Assembly: GCA_964460485.1 (NCBI GenBank)
Contig: CAYWRY010000002.1
Location: 4,243 to 68,242 of the forward strand
From: an uncultured Spirochaetales bacterium
Lineage (GTDB): Bacteria > Myxococcota_A > UBA9160 > UBA6930
Direction of reading: 5' to 3'
DNA: 64,000 nt
The translations under genes and the position numbers were made by a program. This document shows positions 25,140 through 41,128 of the stretch, piece after piece (positions within the stretch are counted from its first letter, which is position 1; each line of letters starts with the position of its first letter). The notes beneath the pieces are model-generated. The model was not told where the DNA came from, did not search any database, and worked only from the letters and a program-made list of their open reading frames with translations.

Positions 25140-25207
25140 GCGCGAGGCCGCCCAGAACGCGCGCTCGCCCGGCTGCGCCGCGGCTTGCCCGGCGCGCTCC
25201 CGGGCGC

Positions 25208-25855: not shown

Positions 25856-25978
25856 GCGCGCCAACGTACCGCGGCGCGGGCCGGCCAATCGCGGGGCGTT
25901 TGCGCGCGGCGCTGTGCCATCGTCAGGGCACGCTGCAACGCTGCGCGCCTGCCGCTTCGCACGAGGGAGACAACGCCG

Positions 25979-27199
25979 ATGCGCTTCGGGATCTTCTACG
26001 AGCACCAGCTGCCGCGGCCCTGGACCGACGGCCTCGAGCACAGGCTCTTCCAGGACGCGCTCGCGCAGGTGGAGCTCGCCGACCAGCTGGGCTTCGACAC
26101 CGCGTGGGAGGTCGAGCATCACTTCCTCGAGGAGTACTCCCACTCGTCGGCGCCCGAGGTGTTCCTAGCGGCGTGCTCCCAGCGCACCAAGAACATCCGC
26201 CTCGGCCACGGCATCGTGCTCATGCCCCCGGGCTACAGCCACCCTGCGAAGATTGCCTCGCGCATCGCGACGCTCGATCTCGTCTCGAACGGCCGCGTCG
26301 AGTTCGGCACCGGCGAGTCGGCCTCGCGGCTCGAGCTGGAGGGCTTCGGCGTGCCGCCCGGCGAAAAAAAGGCGATGTGGCGCGAGGCGACCGAGCAGGT
26401 CTGCAACATGCTCGCGATGGATCCCTATCCCGGTCATCAGGGGAAGTACTTCGCGATGCCCCCGCGCAACGTGGTGCCGAAACCGCTGCAGCGCCCGCAT
26501 CCGCCCCTGTGGGTCGCGTGCTCGAACCGCGGCACGATCCTCGAGGCCGCGCGGCTCGGCATCGGCGCGCTCACGTTCGCCTTCATCGACGAGAGCGAGG
26601 CCCGCCAGTGGGTGAAGGACTACTACGACACTTTCAAGCGCGAGTGCGTGCCGATCGGGCACACCGTGAACCCGAACGTCGCGATGGTGTCGGGCTTCTC
26701 GGTGCACCCCGATCGTGCCGAGGCGGAACGGCGCGGGCTCGAAGGCTTCAAGTTCTTCGGCTTCGCGCTCGGCCATCACTATGTGTTCGGCGAGCAGCGC
26801 GTCGGGCGCACCGACATCTGGCGCAACTTCCAGCACTTCCGCGACCAGTTCCCCGGGCCCGAGGGGCGCTCGATCGGAACGCCCGACGAGGTGCGCGCCC
26901 GGCTGCTGCAGATGGAGGACGCCGGCGTCGACCAAGTCGTGTTCATCCAGCAGGCGGGCCGCAACCGCCACGAGCACATCTGCGAGAGCCTCGAGCTGTT
27001 CGCGAAGGACGTGATGCCGGAGTTCGCCGCGCGCCGCGCCGAGCGCGAGCGGCGCAAAGCCGACGAGCTTGCGCCCTACGTCGCGGCGGCCATGCAGCGC
27101 AAGCGCTGGATGAAGCCGCTCTCCGATGGAGAGATCCCCGTCGTGAAGGCCTACGGCCGGCCAGACGCCCAGACGCCGCCCGACCTCGAGAGCCGTTAG
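25979..27199 (+). CDS. LLM-class flavin-dependent oxidoreductase
   Basis: MRFGIFYEHQLPRPW..., HHFLEEYSHSSAPEVFL and GRVEFGTGES are typical of the luciferase-like family. ATG at 25979 follows GGGAGA. Confidence 0.9.
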   Translation: MRFGIFYEHQLPRPWTDGLEHRLFQDALAQVELADQLGFDTAWEVEHHFLEEYSHSSAPEVFLAACSQRTKNIRLGHGIVLMPPGYSHPAKIASRIATLDLVSNGRVEFGTGESASRLELEGFGVPPGEKKAMWREATEQVCNMLAMDPYPGHQGKYFAMPPRNVVPKPLQRPHPPLWVACSNRGTILEAARLGIGALTFAFIDESEARQWVKDYYDTFKRECVPIGHTVNPNVAMVSGFSVHPDRAEAERRGLEGFKFFGFALGHHYVFGEQRVGRTDIWRNFQHFRDQFPGPEGRSIGTPDEVRARLLQMEDAGVDQVVFIQQAGRNRHEHICESLELFAKDVMPEFAARRAERERRKADELAPYVAAAMQRKRWMKPLSDGEIPVVKAYGRPDAQTPPDLESR

Positions 27200-27343
27200 G
27201 GCGTCGACGCAAGACCTGCGCGCGATGCGCCGGTTGCAGGCCTTCGCGCGCTCTTTCGCGCGACGCCCGGAGCGCGGGAGCGTGACGCATTTCCTTGCCC
27301 GCTCCGGGATCGCTTGATAGTCCTCGCGCCGAAGGGGGATTCC

Positions 27344-28162
27344 ATGCTCATCACCAAGCACCCGTTTGCCGTCTTCGCGCTGCTCGCGGCGCTCGCGATC
27401 CCGAGCGCGGGAGCGGCCGAGAGCCGGTTCTCCGGCATCGCGCAGATCGACTTCACGAACGCCTACATCTTCCGCGGAATCATGAACGAGAAGAGCGGCG
27501 CCATCGTGCAGCCCTGGGGCGAGGTCTACGCGAACCTCTACTCCTCGGACGACGGCTTCCTGCGCGACGTCACCGCCGGCTTCGGCGTCTGGCTGAGCAT
27601 CCACAGCGAGGAGACCCTCGCCGTCGACGACCCGACCTCGCTCTACGAGGCGGACTACTACCCGCTGGTCTCGGTCGACGTCGCGGGCGGCGTGAATCTG
27701 CTCACAACGTACTACTTCTACGATAGTCCGAACGGCGCGTGGGGTCCGGCCGTGCAGGAGCTGAACTTCAAGCTGTCGCTCGGCGAGGGTCCCTTCGAGC
27801 GCATCGCGCCCTGGATGAACCTCGCGATCGAAACGTACAGCTCGTCGAGCGGCACGACTTCGGGCACCGGCGTGCAGTTCGGCATCGCGCCGACGTTCTT
27901 CGAGAGCGACGCGTTCTCGGTGAGCGGCTCGGCGGAGGTCGGCCTCACCATCGACGACTACTACGACGGGCTCAGCGGCGACGGGAACGAGAACACCTTC
28001 GGTTACGCGAATCTCGGTGTGGGCCTGGGTGTGCCGATCAACGACTTCCTCTCCGCGGGCCTGAGCTTCAAGTACTTCCTCTTCGGCGACGACCTCGAGG
28101 CCGTGAACGGCGGTCACGGCGGACACGGCGTGGTGGTCGGCAGCGTCACGGCGGAGTTCTGA
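27344..28162 (+). CDS. Outer-membrane beta-barrel protein, TorF/Gcw_chp-like putative porin
   Basis: Signal peptide (ALLAALAIPSAGA). YIFRG motif near the N-terminus, amphipathic beta-strand periodicity, and a C-terminal Phe. ATG at 27344 follows AAGGGGGA. Confidence 0.7.
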   Translation: MLITKHPFAVFALLAALAIPSAGAAESRFSGIAQIDFTNAYIFRGIMNEKSGAIVQPWGEVYANLYSSDDGFLRDVTAGFGVWLSIHSEETLAVDDPTSLYEADYYPLVSVDVAGGVNLLTTYYFYDSPNGAWGPAVQELNFKLSLGEGPFERIAPWMNLAIETYSSSSGTTSGTGVQFGIAPTFFESDAFSVSGSAEVGLTIDDYYDGLSGDGNENTFGYANLGVGLGVPINDFLSAGLSFKYFLFGDDLEAVNGGHGGHGVVVGSVTAEF

Positions 28163-28166
28163 TCGC

Positions 28167-28200
28167 GCGGGCCTTCGGGCGAACGCGCTCGAAGGCCCGC
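28167..28200. terminator. Bidirectional terminator-like hairpin between the convergent porin and potA genes
   Basis: Perfect 11-bp stem GCGGGCCTTCG / CGAAGGCCCGC with a 12-nt loop. Confidence 0.5.
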
Positions 28201-28262
28201 GGCGTCCGCGGTCACGGGCGCGCGGCGCGAGCGAGGCTGCGCCCGCGCCACGCGGCCGGCTC

Positions 28263-29366
28263 TCACGCCTCCGGCGTGAGCAGCCGCGCCGAGTCCGCGG
28301 CCCAGTGCGCCCAGAGCCGCGCGCCGGCGCGCGCCTCGGCGACGCGTCGATCCGTCTCGATGTGTGCGACCAGCTCGTCGCCGGCTGCGGTCTTCACGGC
28401 GCAGCGCTGCACCGCGCCCTGGAACACGAGGTCGGTGCAGGTCACCGGCATGGTGCAGTCCTCCGTGCTCGGCTCGGCCGCGCACACCTCGAGCCGCTCC
28501 GGCCGCACCATCAGCAGCGCCGCCGCGCCCGCCGCGAAGGTGCGGCCGCGCGTCGCGATCTCTGCGCGCCGGCCGCCGGGCAGCAGCACGACCGCGCTCG
28601 CGCCGTTCGCGCGCTCGACGGTCACCGGCAGCAAGTTCGCGTGCCCGATGAAGCGCGCGACGAAGGCCGTCTGCGGCTCGTCGTAGATGCCCTCCGGCGT
28701 GCCGACCTGCTCGAGCTCGCCGGCGCGCATCACGGCGATGCGGTCCGCCATGGTGATCGCCTCTTCCTGGTCGTGGGTCACGAAGATGAAGGTGATGCCC
28801 ACGTCGCGCTGGATGCGCTTCAGCTCGATCTGCATCTGGCGGCGCAGCTCGAGGTCGAGGGCGGAGAGCGGCTCGTCGAGCAGCAGCGCCTTGGGGTCGT
28901 TCACGAGCGCGCGCGCCAGCGCGACGCGTTGGCGCTGCCCGCCCGAGAGCTGGCTCGGCATGCGCTGCGCGAGGTCGCCGAGGCGCACGACCTCGATCAT
29001 GCGCTTCACGCGCCGCTCGACGTCGGCCTTGTCATCGCCGCGGATGCGCGGGCCGAAGGCGACGTTGTCGAACACGCTGAGGTGCGGGAACAGCGCGTAG
29101 TTCTGGAACACGGTGTTGACGGGACGCCGGTAGGGCGGGACGCCCGCCATCTCCTGGCCGTCCAGCCGGATCGTGCCGCTGGTCGGCTCCTCGAAGCCGG
29201 CGATCATGCGCAGCATCGTCGTCTTGCCGCAGCCCGACGGGCCGAGCATCGCGAAGAACTCGCCCGCGCCGATCGCGAAGCTCATGTCGTGGGTGGCGAC
29301 GAAGTCGCCGAAGCGCTTCGTGACGTGCTCGACGGAGATCAGGGGTCGCGGGCTCGCCTCGCTCAC
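28263..29366 (-). CDS. potA: Spermidine/putrescine-type ABC transporter ATP-binding protein
   Basis: Walker A GPSGCGKTT, signature LSGGQRQR, Walker B LLLDEPLSALD, and a C-terminal TOBE-like domain. GTG at 29366 lies 5 nt after GGAGGA. The rest of ORF 28263..32477 is read-through. Confidence 0.9.
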   Translation of the reverse strand: MSEASPRPLISVEHVTKRFGDFVATHDMSFAIGAGEFFAMLGPSGCGKTTMLRMIAGFEEPTSGTIRLDGQEMAGVPPYRRPVNTVFQNYALFPHLSVFDNVAFGPRIRGDDKADVERRVKRMIEVVRLGDLAQRMPSQLSGGQRQRVALARALVNDPKALLLDEPLSALDLELRRQMQIELKRIQRDVGITFIFVTHDQEEAITMADRIAVMRAGELEQVGTPEGIYDEPQTAFVARFIGHANLLPVTVERANGASAVVLLPGGRRAEIATRGRTFAAGAAALLMVRPERLEVCAAEPSTEDCTMPVTCTDLVFQGAVQRCAVKTAAGDELVAHIETDRRVAEARAGARLWAHWAADSARLLTPEA

Positions 29367-30550
29367 TACGGTCCTCCAGGAATCGGCGTCGCCGGCGGCT
29401 CGGCGGGCGCCGCGGGATCGAAACCCTTTTCGCGGCTTGCGTAAACCCAGCGCGGGGTCTTCGCGAGCTGCACGGCCAGCGCGGAGATCTGCTCGTCGAT
29501 CCAGTGAGGGTTCGCGGCGGCGCGGCGCGCAGTCTCGCTGGCCAGATACTCGTCGGTCGCCGGCCCGGCGCCGTAGTACTTCCGGTAGACGTCGAAGCGG
29601 AACAACGCCTTCAGCCGCTTCAGGTCGTGCGGCCCGGTCGGCAGCGGCAGCAGCGCCACGTCCTGCTTGCCGCGCTGCTCCCGCTCGTCGAGGCGCGAGA
29701 GCACGACGTCGAGGCTCGTGGCCAGGTGCTTCTCGTCGCAGAAGGTCTCGAAGTCGTCGTAGAGCAGCTTGATCACCGCGCGGGCCTCCTCGAGCTGAAC
29801 CCGCGCTTCGCGCTCGCGCCCCACGCGCCGCAGCAGCAGCACGAACGGGTGCGGGCGGTCGCCGGTCGCGGCGATCTCGGCGGTCGGCCGAAAATCGGGT
29901 TGGCGATAGGGAAAGTGTCGCGGGTCGATCGCGTCGAAGCCGCCGCGACCGTAGAAGAGCAGGCGTTGCAGCGAGAGCTTGTCCTCGGGGCTGAAGTACT
30001 CGACCTCCGCCGCGAGGTCGATGCGCATGCCGTAGTGCTTGTGCGGTGCGTCGGGCTCGGGGAGCACGATCTTCCCGCGCTGGTGCAGCAGGTGCAGGTA
30101 CGTGATCGCGAGGTCCATCGGCGCGATGCGCAGCCAGTAGGTGAGCACGGTGCCGCGCGCGTCGGGCGCCATGAAGATGTGCGAGAGGTAGACGACGCAC
30201 AGGTCGGCGTCGTAGTGCTGATTCACCAGCACGCGGCCGTCGCGCACGCCGCGAATCGCTCCCGTCGCACGGTCGCGCGCCACCAGCAGGAAGAAGCGCG
30301 CGAAGCCTCCGTCCGGCATCGCGTCCGTGGGATCCTCGAGCATCATCTCGCGGATGGTGGCCTCGGACTCCATCTCGCCGGCCGGCCCGAAGGCGTCCCA
30401 CAGCATCCGGTAGGCGGCCGCGAAGTCGGGGTGGTCCGGGTGCTCGATCGACTCGACCTCGTACTTTCGCGTCTCGCGCTCGATCATCTCCACGATGTCC
30501 TGCGCGTAGAGATCCTTCAGGCAGAGGCGGACGTGGGTGCCGAGGCTCAT
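29366..30550 (-). CDS. Hypothetical protein, divergent GNAT-like paralog of 33796..34617 with a C-terminal extension
   Basis: It shares with the 33796 gene the block PY.QPDFR...PF.L.LRRVGRERE. Its stop TAG shares one base with the potA GTG. Start is ATG 30550 or ATG 30487. Confidence 0.6.
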   Translation of the reverse strand: MSLGTHVRLCLKDLYAQDIVEMIERETRKYEVESIEHPDHPDFAAAYRMLWDAFGPAGEMESEATIREMMLEDPTDAMPDGGFARFFLLVARDRATGAIRGVRDGRVLVNQHYDADLCVVYLSHIFMAPDARGTVLTYWLRIAPMDLAITYLHLLHQRGKIVLPEPDAPHKHYGMRIDLAAEVEYFSPEDKLSLQRLLFYGRGGFDAIDPRHFPYRQPDFRPTAEIAATGDRPHPFVLLLRRVGREREARVQLEEARAVIKLLYDDFETFCDEKHLATSLDVVLSRLDEREQRGKQDVALLPLPTGPHDLKRLKALFRFDVYRKYYGAGPATDEYLASETARRAAANPHWIDEQISALAVQLAKTPRWVYASREKGFDPAAPAEPPATPIPGGP

Positions 30551-31898
30551 GACCCGCGCAGAGTACGGTGTGACCGTGACGAGTGACCAGCACGAAGACG
30601 CGAATCGCTCGGTGTGGACCGCCGAGTCCGAGGCTCCGCGTCCGGTGGCCCCGCTGGCGGGCCGCGCGCGCGCCGACGTCGCGATCGTCGGCGGCGGTCT
30701 CACCGGCGTATCCACCGCGCTGCACCTGCGCCGCGTGCGGCCCGAGCTGGGCATCGCGCTGCTCGAGGCCGGCGTGCTGGGGCAGGGCGCCAGCGGCCGC
30801 AACGGCGGGCAGGTGCTGCACTGGATCAACGGCGTGTCGCCGAAGGACGACGCCGAGCTGCGGCGCAATCACGCGGCGACCGGGCTCGGCATCGACATCG
30901 CAGAAGAGCTCGCCGCGAAGTACGCGCCGGGCGCATTCCGCCGCGCGGGCGCCCTCGAGGTGCTCACCGACGCGCGCCGTGCGCAGGAAGCGCACGCGCG
31001 CGCCGAGCGCTGGAGCGCGGCGGGCGTGCCGGCCGAGTTCGTGCCCGCGAGCCGCCTCGGCATCGCCGGTGCGCACGGCGCGCTGCGCAATCCGCTCGCC
31101 GGACGCCTCAACGGCTTCGCGCTGCTGCAGGCGCTGCGCCCCGCGCTCGTCGCCGAAGGCGTCGCGCTCTTCGAACGCTCGCGCGTGCTGCGCATCCGCG
31201 GCGGCGGTGAAGTCGCGCTCGAGACCGCGGGCGGCGAGCTGCGCGCGCGCACGCTCGTGCTCGCCACGAACGGCTACACGCCCGCGCTCGGCTTCTTCCG
31301 CAGCGGCGTGCTGCCTCTGCACTCCCACGCCCTCGCCACCGCGCCGCTCGCGGACGCGGATTGGGCGCGCCTCGGCTTCGGCGCCTGGGACGGCTTCAGC
31401 GACGACCTCGACCGCATCGCCTACGCCATGCGCACGCCCGGCGGCCGCCTGCTGCTCGGCGGCGGCGGCAACGCGGCCTACACGTACCACTACGGCAGCC
31501 GCGTGGTGGCGAGCGAGGCCGCGATCGCGCGCGCGCAGCCATTCCTCGAGCGAACGCTGCGCGGCTACTTCCCGGGCGTCGCCGGAGTGCCGATCTCGCA
31601 TCGCTGGTCCGGCGTGCTCGCCATCACCCTCGACCGCCAGCCCTCGATCGGCGCCGGCCTCGTCGCGCCGAACGTGATGCACGGCCTCGGCTACAGCGGC
31701 CACGGCCTCGCGCTCGCGCTCCTCGCCGGCCGCGTGCTCGCCGACGTCTACGTGGGCAACCCCGACCCGTGGCGCGATCTCGCCTTCTTCAACAAGCGCC
31801 TCCTCCCCATCCCCCCGGAGCCCCTGCGCTGGCTCGGTTATCAGGCCTACACCCGCCTCACCGGCAGAAGCCCGCGCAGGCATGCGCGCATCACGTGA
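30549..31898 (+). CDS. FAD-dependent oxidoreductase, PuuB (gamma-glutamylputrescine oxidase)/DadA-like
   Basis: Dinucleotide fold DVAIVGGGLTGVSTAL and GASGRNGGQ as in PuuB, plus the C-terminal GYSGHGL. The start is ambiguous (GTG 30537, ATG 30549, GTG 30570). Confidence 0.85.
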   Translation: MTRAEYGVTVTSDQHEDANRSVWTAESEAPRPVAPLAGRARADVAIVGGGLTGVSTALHLRRVRPELGIALLEAGVLGQGASGRNGGQVLHWINGVSPKDDAELRRNHAATGLGIDIAEELAAKYAPGAFRRAGALEVLTDARRAQEAHARAERWSAAGVPAEFVPASRLGIAGAHGALRNPLAGRLNGFALLQALRPALVAEGVALFERSRVLRIRGGGEVALETAGGELRARTLVLATNGYTPALGFFRSGVLPLHSHALATAPLADADWARLGFGAWDGFSDDLDRIAYAMRTPGGRLLLGGGGNAAYTYHYGSRVVASEAAIARAQPFLERTLRGYFPGVAGVPISHRWSGVLAITLDRQPSIGAGLVAPNVMHGLGYSGHGLALALLAGRVLADVYVGNPDPWRDLAFFNKRLLPIPPEPLRWLGYQAYTRLTGRSPRRHARIT

Positions 31899-31959
31899 CG
31901 AGCGCGGCAATCCGCTCGTTGGCGATCGAGCACGGCCGTCGCACGGGCGAAGCCTGACT

Positions 31960-31984
31960 CGCCGGCGCCTCGAAGGCGCCGGCG
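31960..31984. terminator. Terminator-like hairpin after the oxidase gene (CGCCGGCGCC-TCGAA-GGCGCCGGCG)
   Basis: Perfect 10-bp stem with a 5-nt loop, 62 nt after the stop at 31898. Confidence 0.5.
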
Positions 31985-32051
31985 ATTCACCCTCCCAACT
32001 ACCGACTCGTCGACGCAGCCCCGCACGCGAAGCGTGACCCTCGCGCGCCGT

Positions 32052-32214
32052 CCGACGCGGGCCGGGCGCGGGGCGCGGAGCCGGCATCGAGCGCAGGAGC
32101 GACCCCCAGACCCGGTGAGTCTTCAGAACACGCGCGCCCCGTCTCTCCGGTGGTCCCCTCCAGAGGGTCGCTCCGAGCCGGCCGGCGCAGCGCCCCGCGC
32201 CCGGCCCGCGTCGG
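32052..32214. repeat. Long hairpin element B: perfect 25-bp inverted repeat around a 113-nt structured core
   Basis: 32052-32076 (CCGACGCGGGCCGGGCGCGGGGCGC) is the exact reverse complement of 32190-32214. An inner 10-bp stem pairs 32096-32105 with 32165-32174. The inner flanks are homologous to element A in reverse orientation. Confidence 0.85.
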
Positions 32215-32286
32215 GCACCCCCGCCGTTCCAGGTTCCACACGCCCTCGCGCTGGCGCCGCGTCCCGCGCAGTGCTGGGATACGCCC

Positions 32287-33651
32287 ATGTCCACCGCATT
32301 CGACCTCGCCGAGCTGCGCCGCCTCGACGCCGCCCACCACCTCCACCCCTTCACCGACCACGTCGCCCTGCACAAGCAAGGCACCCACGTGATCCGCTCC
32401 GCGAAGGGCTGCACGCTCGTCGACGAGACGGGCCGCGAGCTGCTGGACGGCCTCGCAGGCTTGTGGTGCGTGAACATCGGCTACGGGCGCGACGAGATCC
32501 GCGCCGCCGTCGACGCGCAGATGCGCCAGGTCGCCTTCTATCCGTCGTTCTTCAATACCTCGACGGAGCCGACCATCCGCCTCGCCGCGCGCCTCGCGGA
32601 GCTGGCGCCGCGCGGCCTCGGGCACGCAATCTTCTCGAACTCGGGCTCCGAGGCGAACGAGACCGCGCTGAAGCTCGCGCGCGCCTACTGGAAGCTGCGC
32701 GGCAAGCCGGAGAAGAAGAAGGTGCTGTCGCGCACCTACGCCTATCACGGCGTGGGTCTCGCGACGACGAGCCTCACCGGGTTGCCGAGCTGCCTCGACC
32801 CGTTCGACCTGCCGCTGCCCGGCTTCATCCACGTGCCCGGCCCGCTCGCCTACGGCAGCGAGCTCTCGCCGACCGATTACGGGAAGTGGTGCCTCGAGCA
32901 GACCGAGCGCGCGATCGCGCGCGAAGGCGCGGGCGAGATCGGCGCGATGTTCGTCGAACCGATCCAGGGCGCGGGCGGCGTGATCGTGCCGCCGCCCGGC
33001 TACCTCGCGCAGCTGCGGGAGCTGTGCCGCCGCCACGAGATCCTGTTCGTCGCGGACGAGGTGATCACGGGCTTCGGTCGCCTCGGCGCGTGGTTCGCTT
33101 CGGAGCTGTGGTCGCTGGATCCGGACCTGATGACCGTCGCGAAGGGAATCACGAGCGGCTACGTGCCGCTCGGCGCCACGCTCGCGCGCGACGAGATCGC
33201 GGAGACGCTTGCGACGGGCGGCTACCTCGCCCACGGCTTCACCTACACGGGGCACCCGGTCGCGTGTGCGGCCGCGCTCGCGAACCTCGACGTGCTCGCG
33301 AAAGAGAAGCTCGTGGAGCGCGTGCGGGACGACGTGGGGCCGCGCTTCCAGGAGCGGCTCGCGAAGCTCGGCGCCCACCCGGCAGTGGCCGAGACGCGAG
33401 GCTTCGCGCTGATCGGCGCGTTCGAGATGCGCCGTCCGCCGCGCGGCCCGCTCGCGAATGCCGGGCCGAACGCCCTCGGGCCGGCGATGCACGCGCTCTG
33501 CCGCGAGGAGGGCGTGATCGTGCGCGGCATCCGCGACCTCGGCGCGATGTCGCCGCCGTTCGTGGTGACGCACGCGGAGCTCGACGAGATGTTCGCGCGC
33601 ACGGCGCGGGCCCTCGACCGACTGTGGGCGGGCGAGATCGCGAAGGGCTGA
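32287..33651 (+). CDS. Class-III aminotransferase, SpuC-like (putrescine/omega-amine:pyruvate aminotransferase)
   Basis: Co-linear with P. aeruginosa SpuC by eye: HHLHPFTD, GLWCVNIGYGR, SGSEANE, EPIQGAGGVIVPP, DEVITGFGR, and the PLP-Lys in TVAKGITSGY. Confidence 0.9.
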   Translation: MSTAFDLAELRRLDAAHHLHPFTDHVALHKQGTHVIRSAKGCTLVDETGRELLDGLAGLWCVNIGYGRDEIRAAVDAQMRQVAFYPSFFNTSTEPTIRLAARLAELAPRGLGHAIFSNSGSEANETALKLARAYWKLRGKPEKKKVLSRTYAYHGVGLATTSLTGLPSCLDPFDLPLPGFIHVPGPLAYGSELSPTDYGKWCLEQTERAIAREGAGEIGAMFVEPIQGAGGVIVPPPGYLAQLRELCRRHEILFVADEVITGFGRLGAWFASELWSLDPDLMTVAKGITSGYVPLGATLARDEIAETLATGGYLAHGFTYTGHPVACAAALANLDVLAKEKLVERVRDDVGPRFQERLAKLGAHPAVAETRGFALIGAFEMRRPPRGPLANAGPNALGPAMHALCREEGVIVRGIRDLGAMSPPFVVTHAELDEMFARTARALDRLWAGEIAKG

Positions 33652-33660
33652 GCGGCAGGG

Positions 33661-33735
33661 CCGCGCGAAGCGCGGCTGCGCGGTGAGGCGGCCCGGCGGC
33701 GGTGCCGCCGAACGGAGTCGAAGCGTGGCCTCCGT
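33661..33735. repeat. Weak third relative of the 45-bp intergenic repeat
   Basis: It contains GCGAAGCGCG, GAGGCG and CCGAACGGAGTCGAAGCG. The last block matches 15/17 to the CCGAGCGGAGTCGAACG core, in the same order as the reverse-complemented tandem unit. Confidence 0.35.
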
Positions 33736-33795
33736 GCAACGGCGTGGCGACCGCACCTTGCCGGCGCGCGCGGCACGGGGTACCCGCCGCGCGCG

Positions 33796-34617
33796 ATGCG
33801 CGTCTCGCTCGACCCTGCCGATCTCGCGCCCGGCGACCGCGCGGTCGCCGCGCGCGATTGGTCCGGGCTGAGCGTGCAGCGCGTCGCTGGTCCCGAGGAC
33901 CCGGAGCTCGGTGTGGGCTACGCGCGCCTGTGGGCGGAGTTCGGCGCGGACGGCGCCATGGAGCGGCGCGCGGTGATCGAGGCGCGGCTCGCGTGGGACC
34001 CCGCGCGCCCGGTCGGCGCCGTGCGCCTCGCCTACGAGATGCTGGTGTTCCGGCGCGACGGACAGCTCGCGGCGGTGCGCGATCACACGGCGGTCGTACG
34101 CCTCGACGAAAGCGGCGCCCCCGCGCCTGGGCCGATCGTGGTGCATCTCTCCCACGCGCTGGTGGAGCCTGCGGAGCGCGGCAGCGGGCTCGCGGCGTGG
34201 CTGCGCGCACTGCCGCTCGCGGCGGCGCGGCGCTGCGCGGCCGCGGCCGGGCTCCCCGCGAGCGCCCCGATCGTGCTCGTCGCGGAGATGGAGCCGCACG
34301 CGGGCGGCCGTGGGCCGCAGCGGTCCTACGCGCGCGCGGGCTTCTCGAAGGTCGAGCCCGGGGTGGCGCCCTATGCGCAGCCCGACTTCCGCGCACCCGA
34401 TCTCCCGCCGCTGCCCTTCGAGCTCGTGCTGCGCCGCGTGGGCCGGGAGCGAGAGACGGCCCTCCCGGCGGACGAGCTGGCCGCGATCGTGGCGTCGATC
34501 TACGCCGTCTACGCCGTGCACACTCCGGCGCGCGCCATCGAGCCGCTGCAGCGCGCGGCAGCCGTCTGGACGCGCGCGCGCGACGTGTTTCCGCTGGTTC
34601 CACCTACCGCCCCGTGA
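33796..34617 (+). CDS. GNAT-like N-acetyltransferase (putative)
   Basis: An acetyl-CoA motif-A-like segment (VEPAERGSGLAAWL, i.e. R-x-x-G-x-A) sits in an alpha/beta context. It is a paralog of 29366..30550. Confidence 0.6.
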   Translation: MRVSLDPADLAPGDRAVAARDWSGLSVQRVAGPEDPELGVGYARLWAEFGADGAMERRAVIEARLAWDPARPVGAVRLAYEMLVFRRDGQLAAVRDHTAVVRLDESGAPAPGPIVVHLSHALVEPAERGSGLAAWLRALPLAAARRCAAAAGLPASAPIVLVAEMEPHAGGRGPQRSYARAGFSKVEPGVAPYAQPDFRAPDLPPLPFELVLRRVGRERETALPADELAAIVASIYAVYAVHTPARAIEPLQRAAAVWTRARDVFPLVPPTAP

Positions 34618-34645
34618 CAGATCTCTCTTTACGCCGCGGCCCACG

Positions 34646-35593
34646 ATGGGCGACGCTGCGCGCGTGATCGTCGCCTATCACCACCCGGCCTTCGCCGCGG
34701 ACATCGGCCCCCACGTGATGCCGATGCGAAAGTTCCAGCTCGTCGCCGACGGGCTCGCGGGCTGGCCCGGCGTGCGCGTCGAGGCGCCGGCTCCCCTCGA
34801 CGCGGCAGCGCTGCGCCGGGTGCACACCGACGCGTACGTGGAGGCGGTGCGCAGCGGCGTGCCGCGCGAGCTCGCGGAATCGCAGAAGTTCCCGTGGTCG
34901 CCGGCGCTGTGGCCCTCCGTGCTGCTCACCAGCGGCGGCGCGCTGGCGGCGGCGGAGCGCGCGCTGCAAGACGGCATCTCGGCCGCCGTCGCGAGCGGCT
35001 TCCACCACGCCCACGCCGACCACGGCGAGGGCTTCTGCACCTTCAACGGTCTGGTGGTCGCGGCCGAGGCGCTGCGCGCCGCCGGGCGCCTTGCGACGGT
35101 CGCGGTGCTCGACCTCGACCTGCACTACGGCAACGGCACGGCCTCGATGTGCGCCGGGCGTCCCTGGCTCTTCAACTGCTCGATCTACGGCAACGACTAC
35201 TGGCACAACAAGGCCTACCGAGACGTCGAGCATCGGCGGCACAGCGACGGGCCGAATCACGTCTCGTTCGCGTTGCCCAACGGCAGCGGGCGCGCAGAGA
35301 TGCTCGACGCGCTGGCGCGCGGCATCCAGGCGACCCTCGAATGGGGGCGCCCGGACTTGCTGCTCTATCAGGCCGGCGCAGATCCCTATCGCGAGGATCC
35401 GTACTCGCCGCTCGACCTCGACCACGCCGACCTGCGCGAGCGCGATCGCGCCGTCTTCGCCTTCGCGGCGCGCGAGCGCATCCCGATCGCCTGGGTGCTC
35501 GCCGGCGGTTACACGCCCGACGTGAAGAAGGTCGTCGACGTTCACCTCGGCACCTTCGAGGCGGCGCTGGCCGTGTACGGGGCGCGGCCATGA
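34646..35593 (+). CDS. Histone-deacetylase-family (arginase fold) deacetylase, short HDAC11/acetylpolyamine-amidohydrolase-like
   Basis: Motifs SGFHHAHADHGEGFCTFNG, DLDLHYGNGT (Zn ligands D, H) and the catalytic Tyr in LAGGY. ATG at 34646 within ORF 34310..35593. Confidence 0.85.
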   Translation: MGDAARVIVAYHHPAFAADIGPHVMPMRKFQLVADGLAGWPGVRVEAPAPLDAAALRRVHTDAYVEAVRSGVPRELAESQKFPWSPALWPSVLLTSGGALAAAERALQDGISAAVASGFHHAHADHGEGFCTFNGLVVAAEALRAAGRLATVAVLDLDLHYGNGTASMCAGRPWLFNCSIYGNDYWHNKAYRDVEHRRHSDGPNHVSFALPNGSGRAEMLDALARGIQATLEWGRPDLLLYQAGADPYREDPYSPLDLDHADLRERDRAVFAFAARERIPIAWVLAGGYTPDVKKVVDVHLGTFEAALAVYGARP

Positions 35594-36363
35594 GCTGGAT
35601 CCGGCGGCTGTTCGGCGCCTGGACCGCGGTCGTCTTCGCGTTCTTCTACCTGCCGATCGCGATCCTGATCGCGTTCTCCTTCAACGAGTCGCGCCTCAAC
35701 ATCCAGTGGACCGGCTTCACGCTCGACTGGTACGCCAAGCTGTGGAACGACGCGGTGCTGATGCGCGCGGTGAGGAACAGCCTGATCGTCGCCGCCTGCT
35801 CGACCGGCATTTCCGTCGTGCTCGGCACGAGCGGCGCGTGGCTGCTGCACCGCTACCGCTATCGCGCCGCGGGCCTGCTCGAGACGCTCGTGTTCCTGCC
35901 CATGATCGTTCCCGAGGTGATCCTCGGCGTGAGTCTCCTGATCCTGTTCGTCTCGATCGGGCTGCAGCTCGGCTATGCGACGATCGTGATCTCCCACGTG
36001 ACGTTCTGCTTCCCGTTCGTGATGGCCGCGGTGCAGGCGCGCCTCGCCGGGCTCGATCCCTCGCTGGAGGAGGCGGCGCTCGACCTCGGCGCGACGCCGC
36101 TGCAGGCGTTTCTCAAAGTGCTGGTGCCGTTCCTGATGCCCGCGATCCTGTCCGGCGCGCTGATGGCCTTCACGCTCTCGCTGGACGACCTGATCGTCAC
36201 GTACTTCACCGCGAGCGCGCGCACGGCGACGTTGCCGATCGTCATTTTCGGCAAGGTGAAGAAGGGCCTCGATCCGTCGCTCAACGCGATCTCGACGGTG
36301 CTGATCGCGGTCACGGTGCTGGCGCTGTTCGTCACGGAAGCGCTGCGCAAACGGAGCTCGTAA
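35590..36363 (+). CDS. potC: Spermidine/putrescine-type ABC transporter permease
   Basis: 6-TM permease with the EAA loop LEEAALDLGATPLQAF. ATG overlaps the deacetylase stop (ATGA). Confidence 0.9.
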   Translation: MSWIRRLFGAWTAVVFAFFYLPIAILIAFSFNESRLNIQWTGFTLDWYAKLWNDAVLMRAVRNSLIVAACSTGISVVLGTSGAWLLHRYRYRAAGLLETLVFLPMIVPEVILGVSLLILFVSIGLQLGYATIVISHVTFCFPFVMAAVQARLAGLDPSLEEAALDLGATPLQAFLKVLVPFLMPAILSGALMAFTLSLDDLIVTYFTASARTATLPIVIFGKVKKGLDPSLNAISTVLIAVTVLALFVTEALRKRSS

Positions 36364-36387
36364 CTCGAACCCGGAAGGAGAGGATCC

Positions 36388-37482
36388 ATGCGACGCACAC
36401 GATTCGACGGGCGGGCCCTCGCGGCGGCGGCCGCGCTCGCGCTGCTGGCAGGCTGCGGAGGGAAGGAAGAGCCGGCTCCCGCAGAGCCCGCGGCGGCGCC
36501 CGCTGCGGAGGCGGGCGGCGAGCTGAATCTGTTCGCCTGGTCGGAGTACCTGCCGCAGGTCGTGATCGACGAGTTCACGGCCGAGACGGGCATCCAGGTG
36601 AACTACGAGCAGTACGCGTCGAACGAGGAGATGCTCGCGAAGCTGACCTCCGGCGCTGCGGCCTACGACCTGGTGCAGCCTTCCGAGTACACGGTCGAGG
36701 CGATGGTGAAGGAGGGGCTGCTCCAGCCGCTCGACAAGACCCAGCTGAAGAATCTCGGGAACGTCGGGCCAGAGTATTACGGCCGGCCGCACGACCCCGA
36801 GCTCACCTACAGCGTTCCCTACATGCAGGGCACGGTGGGCATCGTCGTGAACACCGAGAAGATCAGCGAGCCGGTCACCAGCTACGCGCAGGTGTTCGAG
36901 CGGAAGAACAAGGGCCGCATCGTGGTGCTCGACGACTCGCGCGAAGTCGTGGGCTGGGCGCTCGCCTCGCTCGGACTCGACGCGAACGACGTGACGGCCG
37001 CGAACCTTGACAAGGCGAAGCCCGTGCTCGCGCGCTGGCTGCCGCTGGTGAAGGTCTACGACTCCGACAGCCCGAAGACGGCGCTGCTCAACGGCGACGT
37101 CGACCTCGGCATCGTCTGGTCGGGCGAGGGCGCGATCCTGATCAACGAGGGCGGCGGCAAGTTCACCTACACGCTGCCGAGCGAGGGCGCGCACATGTTC
37201 ATCGACAGCCTCGCGATCCCGACCACGGCACAGAACGTCCCCGCGGCGCACCAGTTCATCGACTACCTGCTGCGGCCGGAAGTCAGCGTGAAGATCTCGG
37301 CAGAGTTCCCCTACACGAACCCGAACGTCGAAGCGCGCAAGCTGCTCAGCGAGGCGGAGCGCGCGAACGCGGCCAGCTATCCGCCGAGCGACGCGAAGCT
37401 GACGACGTTCCGCGACATCGGGGCGGCGGCCGCGGACGTGGACAAGCTGTTCACGGACATCAAGGCGCAGAGCGGCAGCTGA
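36388..37482 (+). CDS. potD: Polyamine-type periplasmic substrate-binding lipoprotein
   Basis: Lipobox LLAGC. PotD/PotF-like motifs (LNLFAWSEYLP, YDLVQPSEY, SVPYMQGTVGIVVN). A strong RBS, GGAAGGAGAGG, is present. Confidence 0.9.
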   Translation: MRRTRFDGRALAAAAALALLAGCGGKEEPAPAEPAAAPAAEAGGELNLFAWSEYLPQVVIDEFTAETGIQVNYEQYASNEEMLAKLTSGAAAYDLVQPSEYTVEAMVKEGLLQPLDKTQLKNLGNVGPEYYGRPHDPELTYSVPYMQGTVGIVVNTEKISEPVTSYAQVFERKNKGRIVVLDDSREVVGWALASLGLDANDVTAANLDKAKPVLARWLPLVKVYDSDSPKTALLNGDVDLGIVWSGEGAILINEGGGKFTYTLPSEGAHMFIDSLAIPTTAQNVPAAHQFIDYLLRPEVSVKISAEFPYTNPNVEARKLLSEAERANAASYPPSDAKLTTFRDIGAAAADVDKLFTDIKAQSGS

Positions 37483-37544
37483 GCGTGTAAGGGCGGGCGC
37501 GGCGCGCTCGGGCGCCGCGCCGCTCGCCGCCGGCGAGGAGGAGC

Positions 37545-38438
37545 ATGCGGCAGGGCGCGACGAGCTTCGCGGCTGTGGCGGGGACGCAGAAGACGCCGGG
37601 CAGCATCGGCATGCTGCTGCTGCTGCCGCTCGTTCTGTGGGCGGTGGCGTTCGTGGTCGCGCCCGCGGCGATCATGCTCGCCTACAGCTTCCTCGAGCGC
37701 GGGACGCTGGGCGGCGTCGTGTGGGGCTCGCCGACGCTCGACAACTACGCGGGCGTCGGCGACCCAGTCTACCTGCGCATCGTGGTGCGCTCGATCGCCT
37801 ACGCGGCGTTCACCACCGCGATCTGTCTCGCCGCCGGCTACCCGGTCGCCTACCTGATCGGCCGCGCCGACGCGCGCTACCGCAACTTGCTCCTGATGCT
37901 CGTGATGGTGCCGTTCTGGACGAGCTTCCTGATCCGCACCTACGCCTGGGTGACGATCCTCAAGAGCCAAGGCTTCCTGAACTCGATGCTGCTGAGCTTC
38001 GGGATGATCCAGGAGCCGCTGGAGATGCTCTACACGCCGGGCGCCGTGATCATCGGGCTGGTCTACACGTTCCTGCCGTTCATGATCCTGCCGATCTTCA
38101 CCAGCGTGGAGAAGCTCGACGGAGCGCTGATCGAGGCGGCGCTCGACCTCGGCGCCGGGCCGGTGCGCGCCTTCTCGCGCGTGATCGTGCCGCTCACGTC
38201 GCCGGGCATCTCCGCCGGCGTGCTGCTCGTGTTCGTGCCGGCGCTCGGCATCTACGCGGTGAACGACATCCTGGGCGGCGGGCGCGTGGACATGATCGGC
38301 AACATCATCGAGAACCAGATCAAGGGGAACGCGCGCAACTGGCCCTTCGGAGCGGCGCTCGGGACCGCGCTGCTGCTCAGCTTCGCGGTCGCCTACTACT
38401 TCGTGAACCAACGGCAGCGCGCGGCGGAGGGGCGCTGA
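37545..38438 (+). CDS. potB: Spermidine/putrescine-type ABC transporter permease
   Basis: 6-TM permease with the EAA loop LIEAALDLGAGPVRAF. RBS is GAGGAGGAG. Confidence 0.9.
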   Translation: MRQGATSFAAVAGTQKTPGSIGMLLLLPLVLWAVAFVVAPAAIMLAYSFLERGTLGGVVWGSPTLDNYAGVGDPVYLRIVVRSIAYAAFTTAICLAAGYPVAYLIGRADARYRNLLLMLVMVPFWTSFLIRTYAWVTILKSQGFLNSMLLSFGMIQEPLEMLYTPGAVIIGLVYTFLPFMILPIFTSVEKLDGALIEAALDLGAGPVRAFSRVIVPLTSPGISAGVLLVFVPALGIYAVNDILGGGRVDMIGNIIENQIKGNARNWPFGAALGTALLLSFAVAYYFVNQRQRAAEGR

Positions 38439-38456
38439 GAGCGCCCGCGCGGCGCG

Positions 38457-39407
38457 TCAGAGTCGGGCGAGCAGCGCGCCGAGCGTGCGCGCGTCGCCGT
38501 TCGCGGCGAAGGCGATGCGGCCCTCGGCGTCGAGCACGTAGACGAGCGCCGGGTGCGCGAGTTGTCCCGTGTTCTCGTCGCGCTCTCGCGGCACGCGCCA
38601 GGCGTCGAGCACGGCGTTCACCTGTTCCGGCGCGCCGGACAGGACGGCGCCGTCGTCGCCGAGCCGCCAGCTCGCAGCGAGCGCGGGCAGGCGCGCGGGC
38701 GTGTCGCGCCACGGATCGAGGGTGACGACCACGAGCCGCGGCGCGCTCGCGGCGCCGCCGCGCGCGCGGGCCGCGCGCTGCGCAGCGAGCGCCTGGGAGA
38801 CGAGCGCGGGACACACGGCTTCGCAGTGCGCGAACGCGAACGTCACGAGCGCAGGGCGCCCGGCGAGCTGCGCGAGCTCGAGGCGCGCCCCGTGCTGGTC
38901 GACCAACCCGAGCGCAGGGGCGGGCCGGCCGAGGCGCGGGATCGCCGCTGCGTCGGCGAGCGCGGCGGCAGCCTCCGCGGCGACGTCCGGCGACGCGTTC
39001 GCCATCGCGAGCGTGGCGATCCGCGTGCCGCCGGCCGCCGCACCGAGCGCGACGAGCGCGGCGCACGCCGCGAGCGCCGCGCGCCCGAGGCCCGAGGCGC
39101 CGAGGCGCCGCAACCCGCTGCGCAGGCTCCGGCCGAAGGCGGCGAACAGGGCGACGCCGAGGCCGAGCGGCTCGCCGACGAGCAGCAGCCAGCCGCTCGC
39201 GCTCGGCATTCCGCTCGCGCTGGCGTTGAAGCACACCCAGCGCGCGCGAGCGAGCCACTCCGGCGGCTCGTCCGGCGCGGGCCACAGTGCGAGCGCCCAC
39301 CACGCCGCAGTCGCGAGCGCGAGCACCGCGAGTGCGAGCAGCGCCGCGCGTTCGTGCGCGGGCATGCCCGCTCGCCCCGTCACCGCGCTCGCGTTCGCCG
39401 CCGCCAT
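38457..39407 (-). CDS. SCO1/SenC-family copper chaperone fused to an N-terminal polytopic membrane domain
   Basis: The C-terminal thioredoxin-like domain has the CxxxC motif (FAHCEAVCP) and the conserved His (LAHPALVYVLD). The N-terminal ~130 aa have 3 predicted TM segments. ATG overlaps the stop of subunit I (ATGA). Confidence 0.8.
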   Translation of the reverse strand: MAAANASAVTGRAGMPAHERAALLALAVLALATAAWWALALWPAPDEPPEWLARARWVCFNASASGMPSASGWLLLVGEPLGLGVALFAAFGRSLRSGLRRLGASGLGRAALAACAALVALGAAAGGTRIATLAMANASPDVAAEAAAALADAAAIPRLGRPAPALGLVDQHGARLELAQLAGRPALVTFAFAHCEAVCPALVSQALAAQRAARARGGAASAPRLVVVTLDPWRDTPARLPALAASWRLGDDGAVLSGAPEQVNAVLDAWRVPRERDENTGQLAHPALVYVLDAEGRIAFAANGDARTLGALLARL

Positions 39408-41128
39408 CAGCCCACCTTCCACACGACGGAGAGCATCTTCCAGTTCACGAAGTAGTAGGTGACGAACGCGACCAGGAAGACGCCCACCAGCACCATCGTG
39501 CCCGGTGCGACGCCGAGCGCGTGGGGCGCGAGCGCCGCTTCGTCGCCCGCCACGAGCGCGCGCGGCGGGGAGATCAGCCCGAGCGGGAGGCCCTTCGCGG
39601 CGGCGCCACGGCCCGATTCGGCGGCGCCCAGGCGCCGGCCGAAGAACACCGACGCGACCGTCACCAGGATGTAGATCCCGCCGCCGGCGACTGCTAGCAG
39701 ACCGCCGAGCGCCATCACGCCGACCACGAGATCCACCGCCGGCGAGAACTCCACGCCGAAGGGCGCCTGGGAGAAGGTGATGTCCCAGTGCCGCCGCGGG
39801 ACGCCGAAGCTGCCCGCGAAGGTCATCGCCATCGAAAAGATCAGCATGCCGAGAGCGAACAGGTACGGCTGCACGCGCGCCAGCGGCATGAAGGCGATCT
39901 CGCGGCGAAAGATCAGCGGCACCACGTAATAAGTGATGCCCATGAATGCCATCGCCGTGCCCGAGACGACCGTCGCGTGGAAGTGGCCCGGAATGCGCAG
40001 CGTGTTGTGGGCGATGATGTTGATCTGCTCGGTGCCGAACGTGACGCCGGTGATGCCGCCGACGAAGCCAAACACCACCAGCGAGAGCACGAGCGAGCTG
40101 AAGCCGGGGTCGCCCCACGGCGCTCGCGCCAGCCAACCGAACAGTCCCTGCGTCGCGCCGCGCAGGCGCAAGCCGAGCTCGAGCCCGGCGGGCACCGTGA
40201 AGCCGTGGATCATGCTGGCGAGCACCGCCATGTACATGAAGTACGAGGTGTTCCAGACCTTCCAGGCGGGGCCGAAGCCGGGGTCGACGAGCAGGTGGTG
40301 CGCCGACGCCATCGAGATGAACAGGATGTAGAGCACGAAGGCGACGCGGCTGATCTTCTCGTTCAATACCACGCCGCCGACGGTGAGCGCGCCGAGCAGG
40401 TACCAGATCGACACCATCGCCGCGACGTTGATCTGCTGCGACGAGTGACCGAGTCCCCACCAGATCAACCGATAGAAGGACGGGTCGATCTCCAGCCAGC
40501 CCATCGACCAGAGCAGGGTCGGAACGTAGACGATCGCGCCGTGCAGCAGCGTGACGGTCGCGATGATCGCCGCGGTGAGCGCGCCGAAGGTGACGAGCGG
40601 CAGCGAGCCCTTCAAAACACCCTCGCGCTTTGCGACGGTGATCGTCGCGAAAAAGTGGCCCACCACGATCAGCGCGCCGACGGCGAACAGGATCACGCCG
40701 AGATAGAAGGGGGGCTCGGCGCGCAGCGGGACGTAGGAGGTGAAGAGCACGTCCGCCTTGCCGCTGAACATCATCCACTCGACCAGCGCGGCGCCGGCCG
40801 TCATCAGGCCGAAGGCGAGCCAGCCGAGCCGAGGCGCGGGCAGCCGCGCCGAGAGCAGCGGCGCGGCTGCGAAGTAGAGCACCGCCATCTCGAAGAACAG
40901 GATGAAGAAGATCAGCATGTTCATGCCGTGCACGGTGAGGATCCGGTAGAACCACACCGGATCGAGCAGGTGCACCGCCTGCCAGCGCGTCAGCAGCACG
41001 AGCAGCGCTGCGATGCCTCCGACGAGCAGCGCGATCGTCGCGGCGACCGCGTTGGCCTTGATCAGCGCGTCGGCGTGCGCGTCGACGAACAGGCCGGTGG
41101 AGGGGCAGGTTCGTCCCGCGGCGCTCAT
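39407..41128 (-). CDS. Heme-copper oxidoreductase subunit I, ba3 (B-family)-like but lacking the cross-link tyrosine
   Basis: Co-linear with T. thermophilus CbaA by eye: LTVHGMNMLIFF, WWGLGH, SAHHLLVDPGFGP, LRGATQGLFGWLARAPWGDP, HNTLRIPGHFHATV and GVPRRHW. GHPxVY is replaced by GHSSQQ. ATG at 41128 overlaps the subunit II stop. Confidence 0.9.
   Translation of the reverse strand: MSAAGRTCPSTGLFVDAHADALIKANAVAATIALLVGGIAALLVLLTRWQAVHLLDPVWFYRILTVHGMNMLIFFILFFEMAVLYFAAAPLLSARLPAPRLGWLAFGLMTAGAALVEWMMFSGKADVLFTSYVPLRAEPPFYLGVILFAVGALIVVGHFFATITVAKREGVLKGSLPLVTFGALTAAIIATVTLLHGAIVYVPTLLWSMGWLEIDPSFYRLIWWGLGHSSQQINVAAMVSIWYLLGALTVGGVVLNEKISRVAFVLYILFISMASAHHLLVDPGFGPAWKVWNTSYFMYMAVLASMIHGFTVPAGLELGLRLRGATQGLFGWLARAPWGDPGFSSLVLSLVVFGFVGGITGVTFGTEQINIIAHNTLRIPGHFHATVVSGTAMAFMGITYYVVPLIFRREIAFMPLARVQPYLFALGMLIFSMAMTFAGSFGVPRRHWDITFSQAPFGVEFSPAVDLVVGVMALGGLLAVAGGGIYILVTVASVFFGRRLGAAESGRGAAAKGLPLGLISPPRALVAGDEAALAPHALGVAPGTMVLVGVFLVAFVTYYFVNWKMLSVVWKVG

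Follow-up and report, generated by a model that had tools for sequence, protein, structure and literature searches.

The window analyzed here, a stretch of 64,000 nucleotides (64 kb) from an uncultured soil or freshwater Myxococcota bacterium, carries at positions 28263-38438 a polyamine island that combines a PotABCD-type importer with an FAD-dependent amine oxidase (OX), an aminotransferase (AT), two GNAT-like proteins (G1 and G2) and a zinc amidohydrolase of the histone deacetylase family (HDAC). With a probability of around one half, we read this island as a unit for polyamine uptake and catabolism that uses an N-acyl protecting group. For the more specific proposal that it represents an undescribed bacterial route we would give somewhat less than an even chance; in this route, the GNAT family of G1 and G2 would add the N-acyl group and a class IV HDAC subfamily, recognizable by its HY and QKFPWS signatures, would strip it from an N-acyl-omega-amino acid after AT or OX and an aldehyde dehydrogenase (ALDH) have acted. 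The best-supported chain runs from G2 via the aminotransferase and an ALDH to HDAC and not through OX, which belongs to a separate, equally tight module together with G1.

Genes were called from third-position GC content (a GC3 frame plot) and a reading of the translations of open reading frames (ORFs); since the G+C content of the window is ca. 72%, mechanical ORF lists are mostly artefacts. One ORF of 1404 amino acids (aa) at 28263-32477 on the minus strand was rejected as such a high-GC artefact in which the frame of potA is stop-free across G1 and OX, with potA itself comprising the last 367 codons. On identical contigs, JGI called these island genes too, at equal lengths. All genes listed in an original prediction made from the sequence alone are present with the motifs (GASGRNGGQ and DLDLHYGNGT) and couplings described for them, as judged by GC3, ORFs, Pfam and NCBIfam, and the gene map reads as follows:

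27344-28162, plus strand: secreted 272-aa protein, beyond the coordinates of the original prediction and a possible member of the island
28263-29366, minus strand: potA, ATPase of a polyamine-type ABC importer
29366-30550, minus strand: G1, 394 aa, putative N-acyltransferase, divergent GNAT fold extended at the C-terminus by helices
30549-31898, plus strand: OX, FAD-dependent amine oxidase/dehydrogenase, DAO family, PuuB-like branch, start uncertain between 30549 and ca. 30600
32287-33651, plus strand: AT, SpuC-like polyamine/omega-amine:pyruvate aminotransferase of class III
33796-34617, plus strand: G2, 273 aa, divergent GNAT fold, putative N-acyltransferase and partner of HDAC
34646-35593, plus strand: HDAC, 315 aa, zinc amidohydrolase of class IV (HDAC11/VcHdaH-like) that putatively deacylates a small N-acyl compound
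35590-36363, plus strand: potC, permease
36388-37482, plus strand: potD, periplasmic polyamine-binding protein of the spermidine type
37545-38438, plus strand: potB, permease

The original prediction had proposed to check related genomes for conservation of this gene set. Our scan covered one genome for each species in GTDB and yielded 79 loci, which were then probed with the proteins of the window and with the E. coli Puu proteins. All ten genes are found together again in related Myxococcota, on long contigs with different flanks and with G1 at ca. 75% identity; because the gene set is kept in relatives whose flanks differ, the island is far more than a chance association. Two tight submodules are conserved more widely still. 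OX is divergent from G1 in 49 of the 54 loci with enough flanking sequence, including those of the cultured Sorangium cellulosum So ce56, many Sorangium strains, Chondromyces apiculatus and Nannocystis, and HDAC directly follows G2 in 37 of 41 loci, some of them in Verrucomicrobia. As adjacent pairs, OX-G1 and G2-HDAC span Myxococcota (Sorangium, Chondromyces and Nannocystis among them), Verrucomicrobia and Planctomycetes. AT adjoins G2 in most clusters of the Myxococcota type, and its position between OX and G2 is constant among the relatives compared (L005 and L009-L027) with an orientation that flips, being codirectional with G2 in the window and in L006 and opposite in most others. The Pot genes join either module. 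Gene orders vary around these pairs, reading ALDH-GabT-like-G1 / OX-G2 in Nannocystis and OX / G1 ... HDAC-AT'-...-G2'-AT'' in Sorangium. In Sorangium sp. So ce726, OX has a Ser/Thr protein kinase as its neighbor, and between G1 and HDAC a GAF-domain protein is encoded (L058 7419-8567, 11245-12408); these two are possibly lineage-specific regulators.

More distant versions of the cluster bring in the ALDH, whose gene is clustered with, overlaps or is fused to that of HDAC. The Chthoniobacter locus reads AT / G2-HDAC-ALDH-potC-potD-potB-(saccharopine-dehydrogenase-like)-ALDH-potA with overlapping HDAC and ALDH genes. A single HDAC::ALDH fusion of 775 aa was found (P0497; L087/L088 10001-12328), in an organism of 54% G+C, and its gene lies directly behind those of AT and a G2 homologue and divergent from a Pot-type ABC importer and a second ALDH. 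G2 and HDAC form a single protein of 582-600 aa at a verrucomicrobial locus (L041 9995-11743). A search with this protein identified the HDAC::ALDH fusion and, at 48-100% identity, at least 12 distinct protein clusters of full-length, in-frame G2::HDAC fusions with lengths of 573-634 aa (P0413-P0423, P0425). These G2::HDAC fusions come mostly from metagenome-assembled genomes of the Verrucomicrobia type and in many cases lack further pathway genes in their vicinity. Because gene order, overlaps and fusions link them, the acyltransferase, the aminotransferase, the ALDH and the deacylase would be steps of one small-molecule pathway.

The original prediction had suggested for the island an acetyl-protected analogue of the E. 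coli Puu pathway in which the PuuB-like oxidase acts between N-acetylation and deacetylation. The absence of PuuA, PuuD and ALDH that it noted for the island extends to the whole window, where no relative of any of the three was detected at E<1e-8; among the ca. 80 related loci, PuuA was found in none and PuuD gave just one weak match at 24% identity. Together with the links between ALDH and HDAC and the G2::HDAC fusions, the missing PuuA favors the idea of a protecting group, but the chain appears to pass through AT and not OX, and acetyl as the protecting group is unproven.

From the family-level gene identities, folds, couplings, synteny and fusions that we observed, we infer a course of events including its activities, acyl donor, step pairings and a role for the G1-OX branch. 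A free polyamine, spermidine- or putrescine-like, would cross the outer membrane, possibly via the secreted 272-aa protein, and would then be imported by PotABCD. G1 and/or G2, both of which have a GNAT fold, would N-acylate one of its primary amines from an acyl-CoA. The other primary amine would be converted to an aldehyde by AT (working with G2) or OX (working with G1), pairings that follow the gene linkage. Unable to cyclize, the resulting N-acyl-aminoaldehyde would be oxidized to an N-acyl-omega-amino acid by an ALDH encoded outside the window, and HDAC would finally strip off the acyl group to yield gamma-aminobutyric acid (GABA) or beta-alanine for central metabolism.

Of the two candidate deaminating enzymes, AT carries an Aminotran_3 domain, passes the NCBIfam model NF005682 (531 versus a cutoff of 510) and is named "putrescine aminotransferase" by JGI. 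Its nearest solved structures, at 412-442 bits, are the "polyamine:pyruvate transaminase" 9j4z (442), 6hx9, which we take to be SpuC of P. putida, 5ti8 and the putrescine aminotransferase 6gwi. OX matches the DAO family (PF01266, E 8e-54) and gives a full-length alignment with PuuB of E. coli at 30% identity (E 7e-32), colinear over ca. 400 residues including GASGRNGGQ, a similarity that indicates family membership and is no proof of specificity; its best NCBIfam model, TIGR03329, is hit far under the cutoff.

The role of G1-OX may be that of a parallel route of entry, or else the cleavage of a triamine at the secondary nitrogen. The latter option refines our proposal of an N-acyl-protected pathway: with a triamine or a related secondary amine as substrate, OX together with G1 would cut an N-acylated molecule of the spermidine type at the secondary nitrogen, much as in SSAT/PAOX back-conversion, and G2, AT, ALDH and HDAC would take on the diamine-derived product. 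A PotD of the spermidine-preferring type and the presence of secondary-amine oxidases in the DAO family fit this idea, as does the Chthoniobacter cluster (L035), where G1-OX is absent and a gene of the saccharopine-dehydrogenase family stands instead (9646-10959, between potB and ALDH). That family includes carboxy(nor)spermidine dehydrogenase; this gene may stand in for a step that cleaves a secondary amine. However, OX is closest to enzymes that oxidize terminal primary amines (PuuB and TIGR03329) and the saccharopine dehydrogenase evidence comes from a single locus, and we regard this refinement as unlikely.

The HDAC protein matches PF00850 (Hist_deacetyl) at E 3e-49, and its closest PDB entries are 9GKV (VcHdaH, 149 bits), 9RJE (chrHDAC11-1 of clade A, 116 bits) and 9GZ5/9RJD (liHDAC11 of clade B, 113 bits), followed by 5ji5, an unclassified short HDAC-family protein, as the fourth match. 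Entries of acetylpolyamine amidohydrolases (APAHs; 3q9b, 6phr, 3men and 9gkz) reach just 50-66 bits over partial length, and the APAH, HDAH, HDAC6 and HDAC8 types do not exceed 75 bits. The structures 9gkv, 9rje and 9gz5 represent class IV or cluster 5 enzymes (PMC11532494, PMC13325672), of which VcHdaH is a lysine de-decanoylase (PMC11532494), and the characterized class IV relatives remove C6-C18 acyl groups. Judged by these sequence-match scores, the HDAC of the island belongs to class IV (HDAC11-like; cluster 5 of Graf et al. 2024), and an assignment as acetylpolyamine amidohydrolase was ruled out. The deacetylase of the original prediction thus keeps its HDAC domain, zinc ligands and GGY motif but falls into class IV and not among the APAHs, and the acyl group that it removes may be longer than acetyl.

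Its catalytic set is intact, with a tandem HH, D.D.H, GADP..D and GGY, and 53 distinct orthologues from the related loci conserve the zinc ligand and catalytic motifs SGFHH, DLDLH, GADP..D and AGGY. Across these orthologues, HVMP (in loop L1), [EQ]SQKFPWS, SGFHH, D[LM]DLHYGNGT and LAGGYT are invariant or nearly so, and on these signatures the orthologues form a defined subfamily. The HY that the original prediction had pointed out in place of the usual HH is indeed present, but we rejected the idea that it impairs catalysis: within DxDxHH, the second His is non-catalytic and replaced by Gln in HDAC11 and 9RJE, and the Tyr is invariant in the 53 orthologues as a signature of the subfamily.

In the class IV framework of 2026, a rim Glu (E94 of human HDAC11) positions the peptide backbone in clade B, and clade A has a Gly at this position (PMC13325672). 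Residues read off pairwise alignments place the island's HDAC in neither clade. Of the features of clade B (rim Glu, HPFD loop, Phe/Tyr gatekeeper) it has the Phe, whereas an invariant Lys occupies the rim and HVMP the L1 loop; for those of clade A (Gly rim, Arg in L1, Thr/Ser gatekeeper and a pocket closed by an Arg-Glu salt bridge) it shows Lys, Val, Phe and Ser/Thr instead. The Phe gatekeeper (in SGFHH) and small residues at the bottom of the pocket resemble clade B. The Lys at the rim position hints at a non-peptide and possibly carboxylate-bearing substrate, whose acyl group need not be acetyl.

The same rim residue bears on a reading in which the island would hold a protein acyl-lysine switch similar to AcuA/AcuC of Bacillus subtilis, with G2 (and G1) acylating a lysine of a pathway enzyme or transporter and HDAC reversing this modification to regulate polyamine catabolism. 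The acu system, like the island, has the genes of a GNAT and a classical HDAC side by side, and AcuC, which is class I-like, acts on acetyl-lysine of AcsA. No AMP-forming acetyl-CoA synthetase, the AcsA-type target, is encoded adjacent to the island in the window or in the conserved neighborhoods. The shared gene-pair architecture, the lysine substrates of the nearest characterized relatives of HDAC (VcHdaH, HDAC11 and the lysine deacylase 5zmp) and the JGI name "AcuC-like" for HDAC all speak for such a switch, and AcuC is discussed in PMC11532494. But where human HDAC11 has the backbone-positioning Glu94, the HDAC of the island has its invariant Lys, the HDAC::ALDH fusion and the metabolic neighbors point to a small-molecule step, and the union of writer and eraser in one polypeptide is hard to square with a switch. 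We consider this explanation quite improbable.

The importer can be assigned at the level of families only. PotA combines ABC_tran and TOBE_2 domains (Pfam) and passes the polyamine ABC ATPase model TIGR01187 with 384.8 versus a cutoff of 355.6. PotC and PotB both carry BPD_transp_1, and their best NCBIfam models are those for PotC (NF007047, 265.7 bits, below the cutoff of 326) and PotB (NF007044, 270 bits, below the cutoff of 348); for PotD, the best model is the PotD equivalog at 246, below the cutoff of 582. The closest PDB entries to PotD are those of E. coli PotD at ca. 222 bits. Of the 13 residues of E. coli PotD that contact spermidine (their numbering agreed with the E. coli sequence), ten are identical, two are replaced conservatively (T35S and W255F) and one is changed (Q327F). 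The positions of E36, D168, E171 and D257 are acidic in 31 of 31 orthologues, with Asp at positions 36 and 171 in six distant ones. Because these four acidic contacts are kept, the ligand of PotD is probably a free protonated polyamine and not an acetylated one.

This result disfavors the alternative of the original prediction that the island imports and salvages acetylated polyamines. If already acylated polyamines were taken up, HDAC would act first on the imported N-acyl-polyamine and AT and OX would then degrade the free polyamine, an order of events that fits the translational coupling of HDAC to the transporter genes; in Pseudomonas, acetylpolyamine amidohydrolases reportedly adjoin polyamine-binding proteins. 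Yet every PotD orthologue keeps the four acidic residues by which free spermidine is bound at its three protonated nitrogens, two acyltransferases would be left without a role even though one of them is recurrently fused to HDAC, and HDAC itself lies outside the acetylpolyamine amidohydrolase class. Uptake of acylated substrate therefore strikes us as having only a slim chance of being correct.

Next to the importer genes, the secreted 272-aa protein has a signal-like N-terminus and a C-terminal ...TAEF ending on Phe, and it gave no Pfam (E<=10), NCBIfam or PDB sequence match. It adjoins potA in around nine relatives at 36-73% identity (L005, L006, L009, L011, L015, L016, L031, L034 and L038) and may provide the island with a channel through the outer membrane. 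A likeness to TorF/Gcw_chp-type porins was considered and dropped, as neither Pfam nor PDB sequence matches support it.

G1 and G2 are paralogues (29% identity, E 6e-23) that no Pfam or NCBIfam model matched. Conservation of G1 is very strong: its relatives fill more than 120 clusters at 73-89% identity, every one of them named "hypothetical", and relatives of G2 are labelled "GNAT superfamily" by JGI. The family as a whole is small, with 313 clusters at 50% identity among the 1.84 billion representatives searched, and 5-12 of 62 members showed sub-threshold matches to GNAT models of Pfam (E 0.004-0.05). For G2, the AlphaFold model has a pLDDT of 96.3 and the top 50 Foldseek matches in the PDB are all GNATs (E down to 2e-5; TM normalized by target 0.5-0.7). 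The model of G1 (pLDDT 85.2) also matches GNATs nearly exclusively but weakly (best E 1e-4). At the level of these modelled folds, G1 and G2 constitute a new, unannotated GNAT family, and the term "GNAT-like" of the original prediction was well chosen.

We further compared both proteins to the two GNAT hallmarks, the R/Q-x-x-G-x-G/A pyrophosphate loop of motif A and the Y..GF of motif B. G2 has a canonical motif A (R128-G-S-G-L-A) and Y178..GF as motif B (SYARAGF). G1 keeps motif B as FYGRGGF, but its motif A (R-G-T-V-L-T) is off the R-x-x-G-x-G/A consensus. An invariant block, PY.QPDFR...RRVGRE, is common to both. When a profile of the family was compared to E. coli SpeG, motifs A and B came out in register but at a probability of 2%, and the comparison to E. 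coli AstA gave no detectable similarity. These comparisons are uninformative, and the family is not placeable with either of these known acyltransferases of polyamines and arginine.

Several of these observations weigh against catabolism by way of an N-acyl protecting group. The pathway is incomplete as encoded here because the window holds no ALDH, and the coexistence of two pairs of acyltransferase and deaminating enzyme is left without an account. G1 and G2 are too divergent for donor or acceptor to be read from them, and motif A of G1 departs from the consensus. The nearest characterized relatives of HDAC are protein-lysine fatty deacylases, and the small residues at its pocket bottom hint at an acyl group longer than acetyl; since the characterized relatives take C6-C18 acyls, "acetyl" as the group removed by HDAC is unproven. 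Finally, G2-HDAC pairs stand alone in several Verrucomicrobia (and in Phycisphaerales) without catabolic neighbors, and pure catabolism does not account for them.

Such lone pairs would suit polyamine homeostasis or detoxification, where the GNATs acylate excess imported polyamine, HDAC releases it when needed, and OX and AT degrade the surplus, so that acylation is a buffer and not a protecting group. SpeG and SSAT inactivate polyamines by acylation, HDAC10 and APAH release them, and a writer and eraser acting on one pool are established for eukaryotic polyamines. In several Verrucomicrobia and Planctomycetes, the lone G2-HDAC pairs and G2::HDAC fusions indeed come without AT, OX, ALDH or transporter. 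Against a buffering role, the HDAC::ALDH fusion and the overlapping HDAC and ALDH genes tie the deacylase to aldehyde oxidation, a transferase and a hydrolase fused to act on the same amide would run a futile cycle, and the Lys at the HDAC rim is unfavorable for a cationic polyamine. We therefore think homeostasis improbable, though less so than a protein switch or the uptake of acylated polyamines, and favor N-acyl-protected catabolism.

The junctions of the island are tight. As stated in the original prediction, HDAC is coupled to potC by an ATGA overlap of its stop codon with the potC start; G2 and HDAC are spaced by 28 nt. The GTG start of potA overlaps the TAG stop of G1 by one base with a GGAGGA ribosome-binding site upstream, and the two genes are translationally coupled. 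The annotated starts of the divergent G1 (minus strand) and OX (plus strand) share 2 nt (30549-30550), which leaves no intergenic promoter region, whereas the relatives have a gap of ca. 20-110 bp. Because conservation of OX among the relatives begins near residue 17, its true start may lie slightly later; either the OX start or the promoter arrangement of G1 and OX is unusual. The 388-bp gap upstream of AT (31899-32286) contains no ORF and no Rfam match, and neither did an Rfam scan of 25000-40000 give a match at E<=1. Promoter and terminator scans showed no excess over shuffles, and the island in the window contains no regulator gene.

Directly downstream of potB, genes for SCO1/SenC and for cytochrome c oxidase subunits I and II (38457-41715, minus strand) follow with overlapping junctions, an arrangement that is also found on the identical JGI contigs and is not kept in more distant relatives. 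Upstream of the secreted 272-aa protein lies a luciferase-like flavin monooxygenase (25979-27199, plus strand) with synteny only in the closest relatives (L009 and L011, at 83-87% identity). It is probably not a member of the island and was not counted, given this limited synteny.

A review from 2022 describes five bacterial routes of polyamine catabolism, none of which resembles that of the island, and gives the fate of acetylspermidine in bacteria as unknown (PMC9397018). In our literature searches, we found no description of a bacterial acetamidobutyrate/N-acetyl-GABA deacetylase, of a bacterial acetylputrescine oxidase or of a gene cluster of this kind. To our knowledge, a step of the 4-acetamidobutanoate deacetylase type is without an assigned bacterial gene, and it would gain one if our proposal were true. 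Bacterial class IV HDACs would likewise gain a physiological small-molecule substrate, and recent work asks which non-peptide substrates these enzymes have (PMC13325672). Class IV comprises the least understood classical HDACs, and the island ties one of its subfamilies to an acyltransferase, an ALDH and a polyamine importer by coupling, synteny and fusions. The outcome is a concrete and testable substrate hypothesis for a class IV HDAC and an unannotated GNAT family, with Sorangium and Chondromyces as cultured carriers on which genetics could be done. In soils and waters, polyamines are a plentiful source of nitrogen.

Among known systems, the E. coli Puu pathway (PuuP, PuuA, PuuB, PuuC, PuuD and PuuE) follows the same logic of protecting one amine, forming an aldehyde, oxidizing it and deprotecting the product. 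Its protecting group is gamma-glutamyl, compared to succinyl in the AST pathway and acetyl in arginine biosynthesis. Protection in Puu relies on the ATP-dependent glutamate ligase PuuA and deprotection on the amidotransferase-type hydrolase PuuD, whereas the island would use acyl transfer by a GNAT and a zinc amidohydrolase of the HDAC type; similarly, the importer is PuuP there and ABC-type here, and the aminotransferase is of the PuuE/GabT type there and the SpuC type here. The AST pathway (AstA-AstC-AstD-AstE) and arginine biosynthesis (ArgA/ArgD/ArgE) share the order of acyltransferase, class III aminotransferase, ALDH and deacylase seen in the relatives of the island, but their substrates are amino acids and not polyamines, and their deacylases AstE and ArgE come from different families of metallohydrolases. 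In mammals and yeast, putrescine is converted via N-acetylputrescine, N-acetyl-4-aminobutanal and 4-acetamidobutanoate to GABA. These would be the very intermediates of the island's pathway if its acyl group were acetyl and its substrate putrescine, though the eukaryotic route uses an SSAT-type acetyltransferase and monoamine or diamine oxidases of families other than those of the island, and we know of no bacterial gene cluster for it. Class IV HDACs (human HDAC11, VcHdaH 9GKV, liHDAC11 of clade B and chrHDAC11-1 of clade A) share the size of ca. 315 aa and the catalytic residues with the HDAC of the island, which differs from them by its Lys rim, HY and QKFPWS and by having a GNAT, an ALDH and a polyamine importer as partners where they are free-standing protein deacylases. 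APAHs (of Mycoplana as well as PA0321 and PA1409 of P. aeruginosa) and HDAC10 also have an HDAC fold, act on acylated polyamines and are in some cases encoded beside polyamine transport genes, but they are dimeric enzymes of cluster 4 or class IIb with ca. 340-380 aa and gatekeeper motifs unlike those of the island's HDAC (PMC11532494). The logic of the proposed pathway is thus known from Puu, AST, arginine biosynthesis and the eukaryotic acetylputrescine route, and what differs are its enzymes, the new GNAT family of G1 and G2 and the class IV HDAC subfamily.

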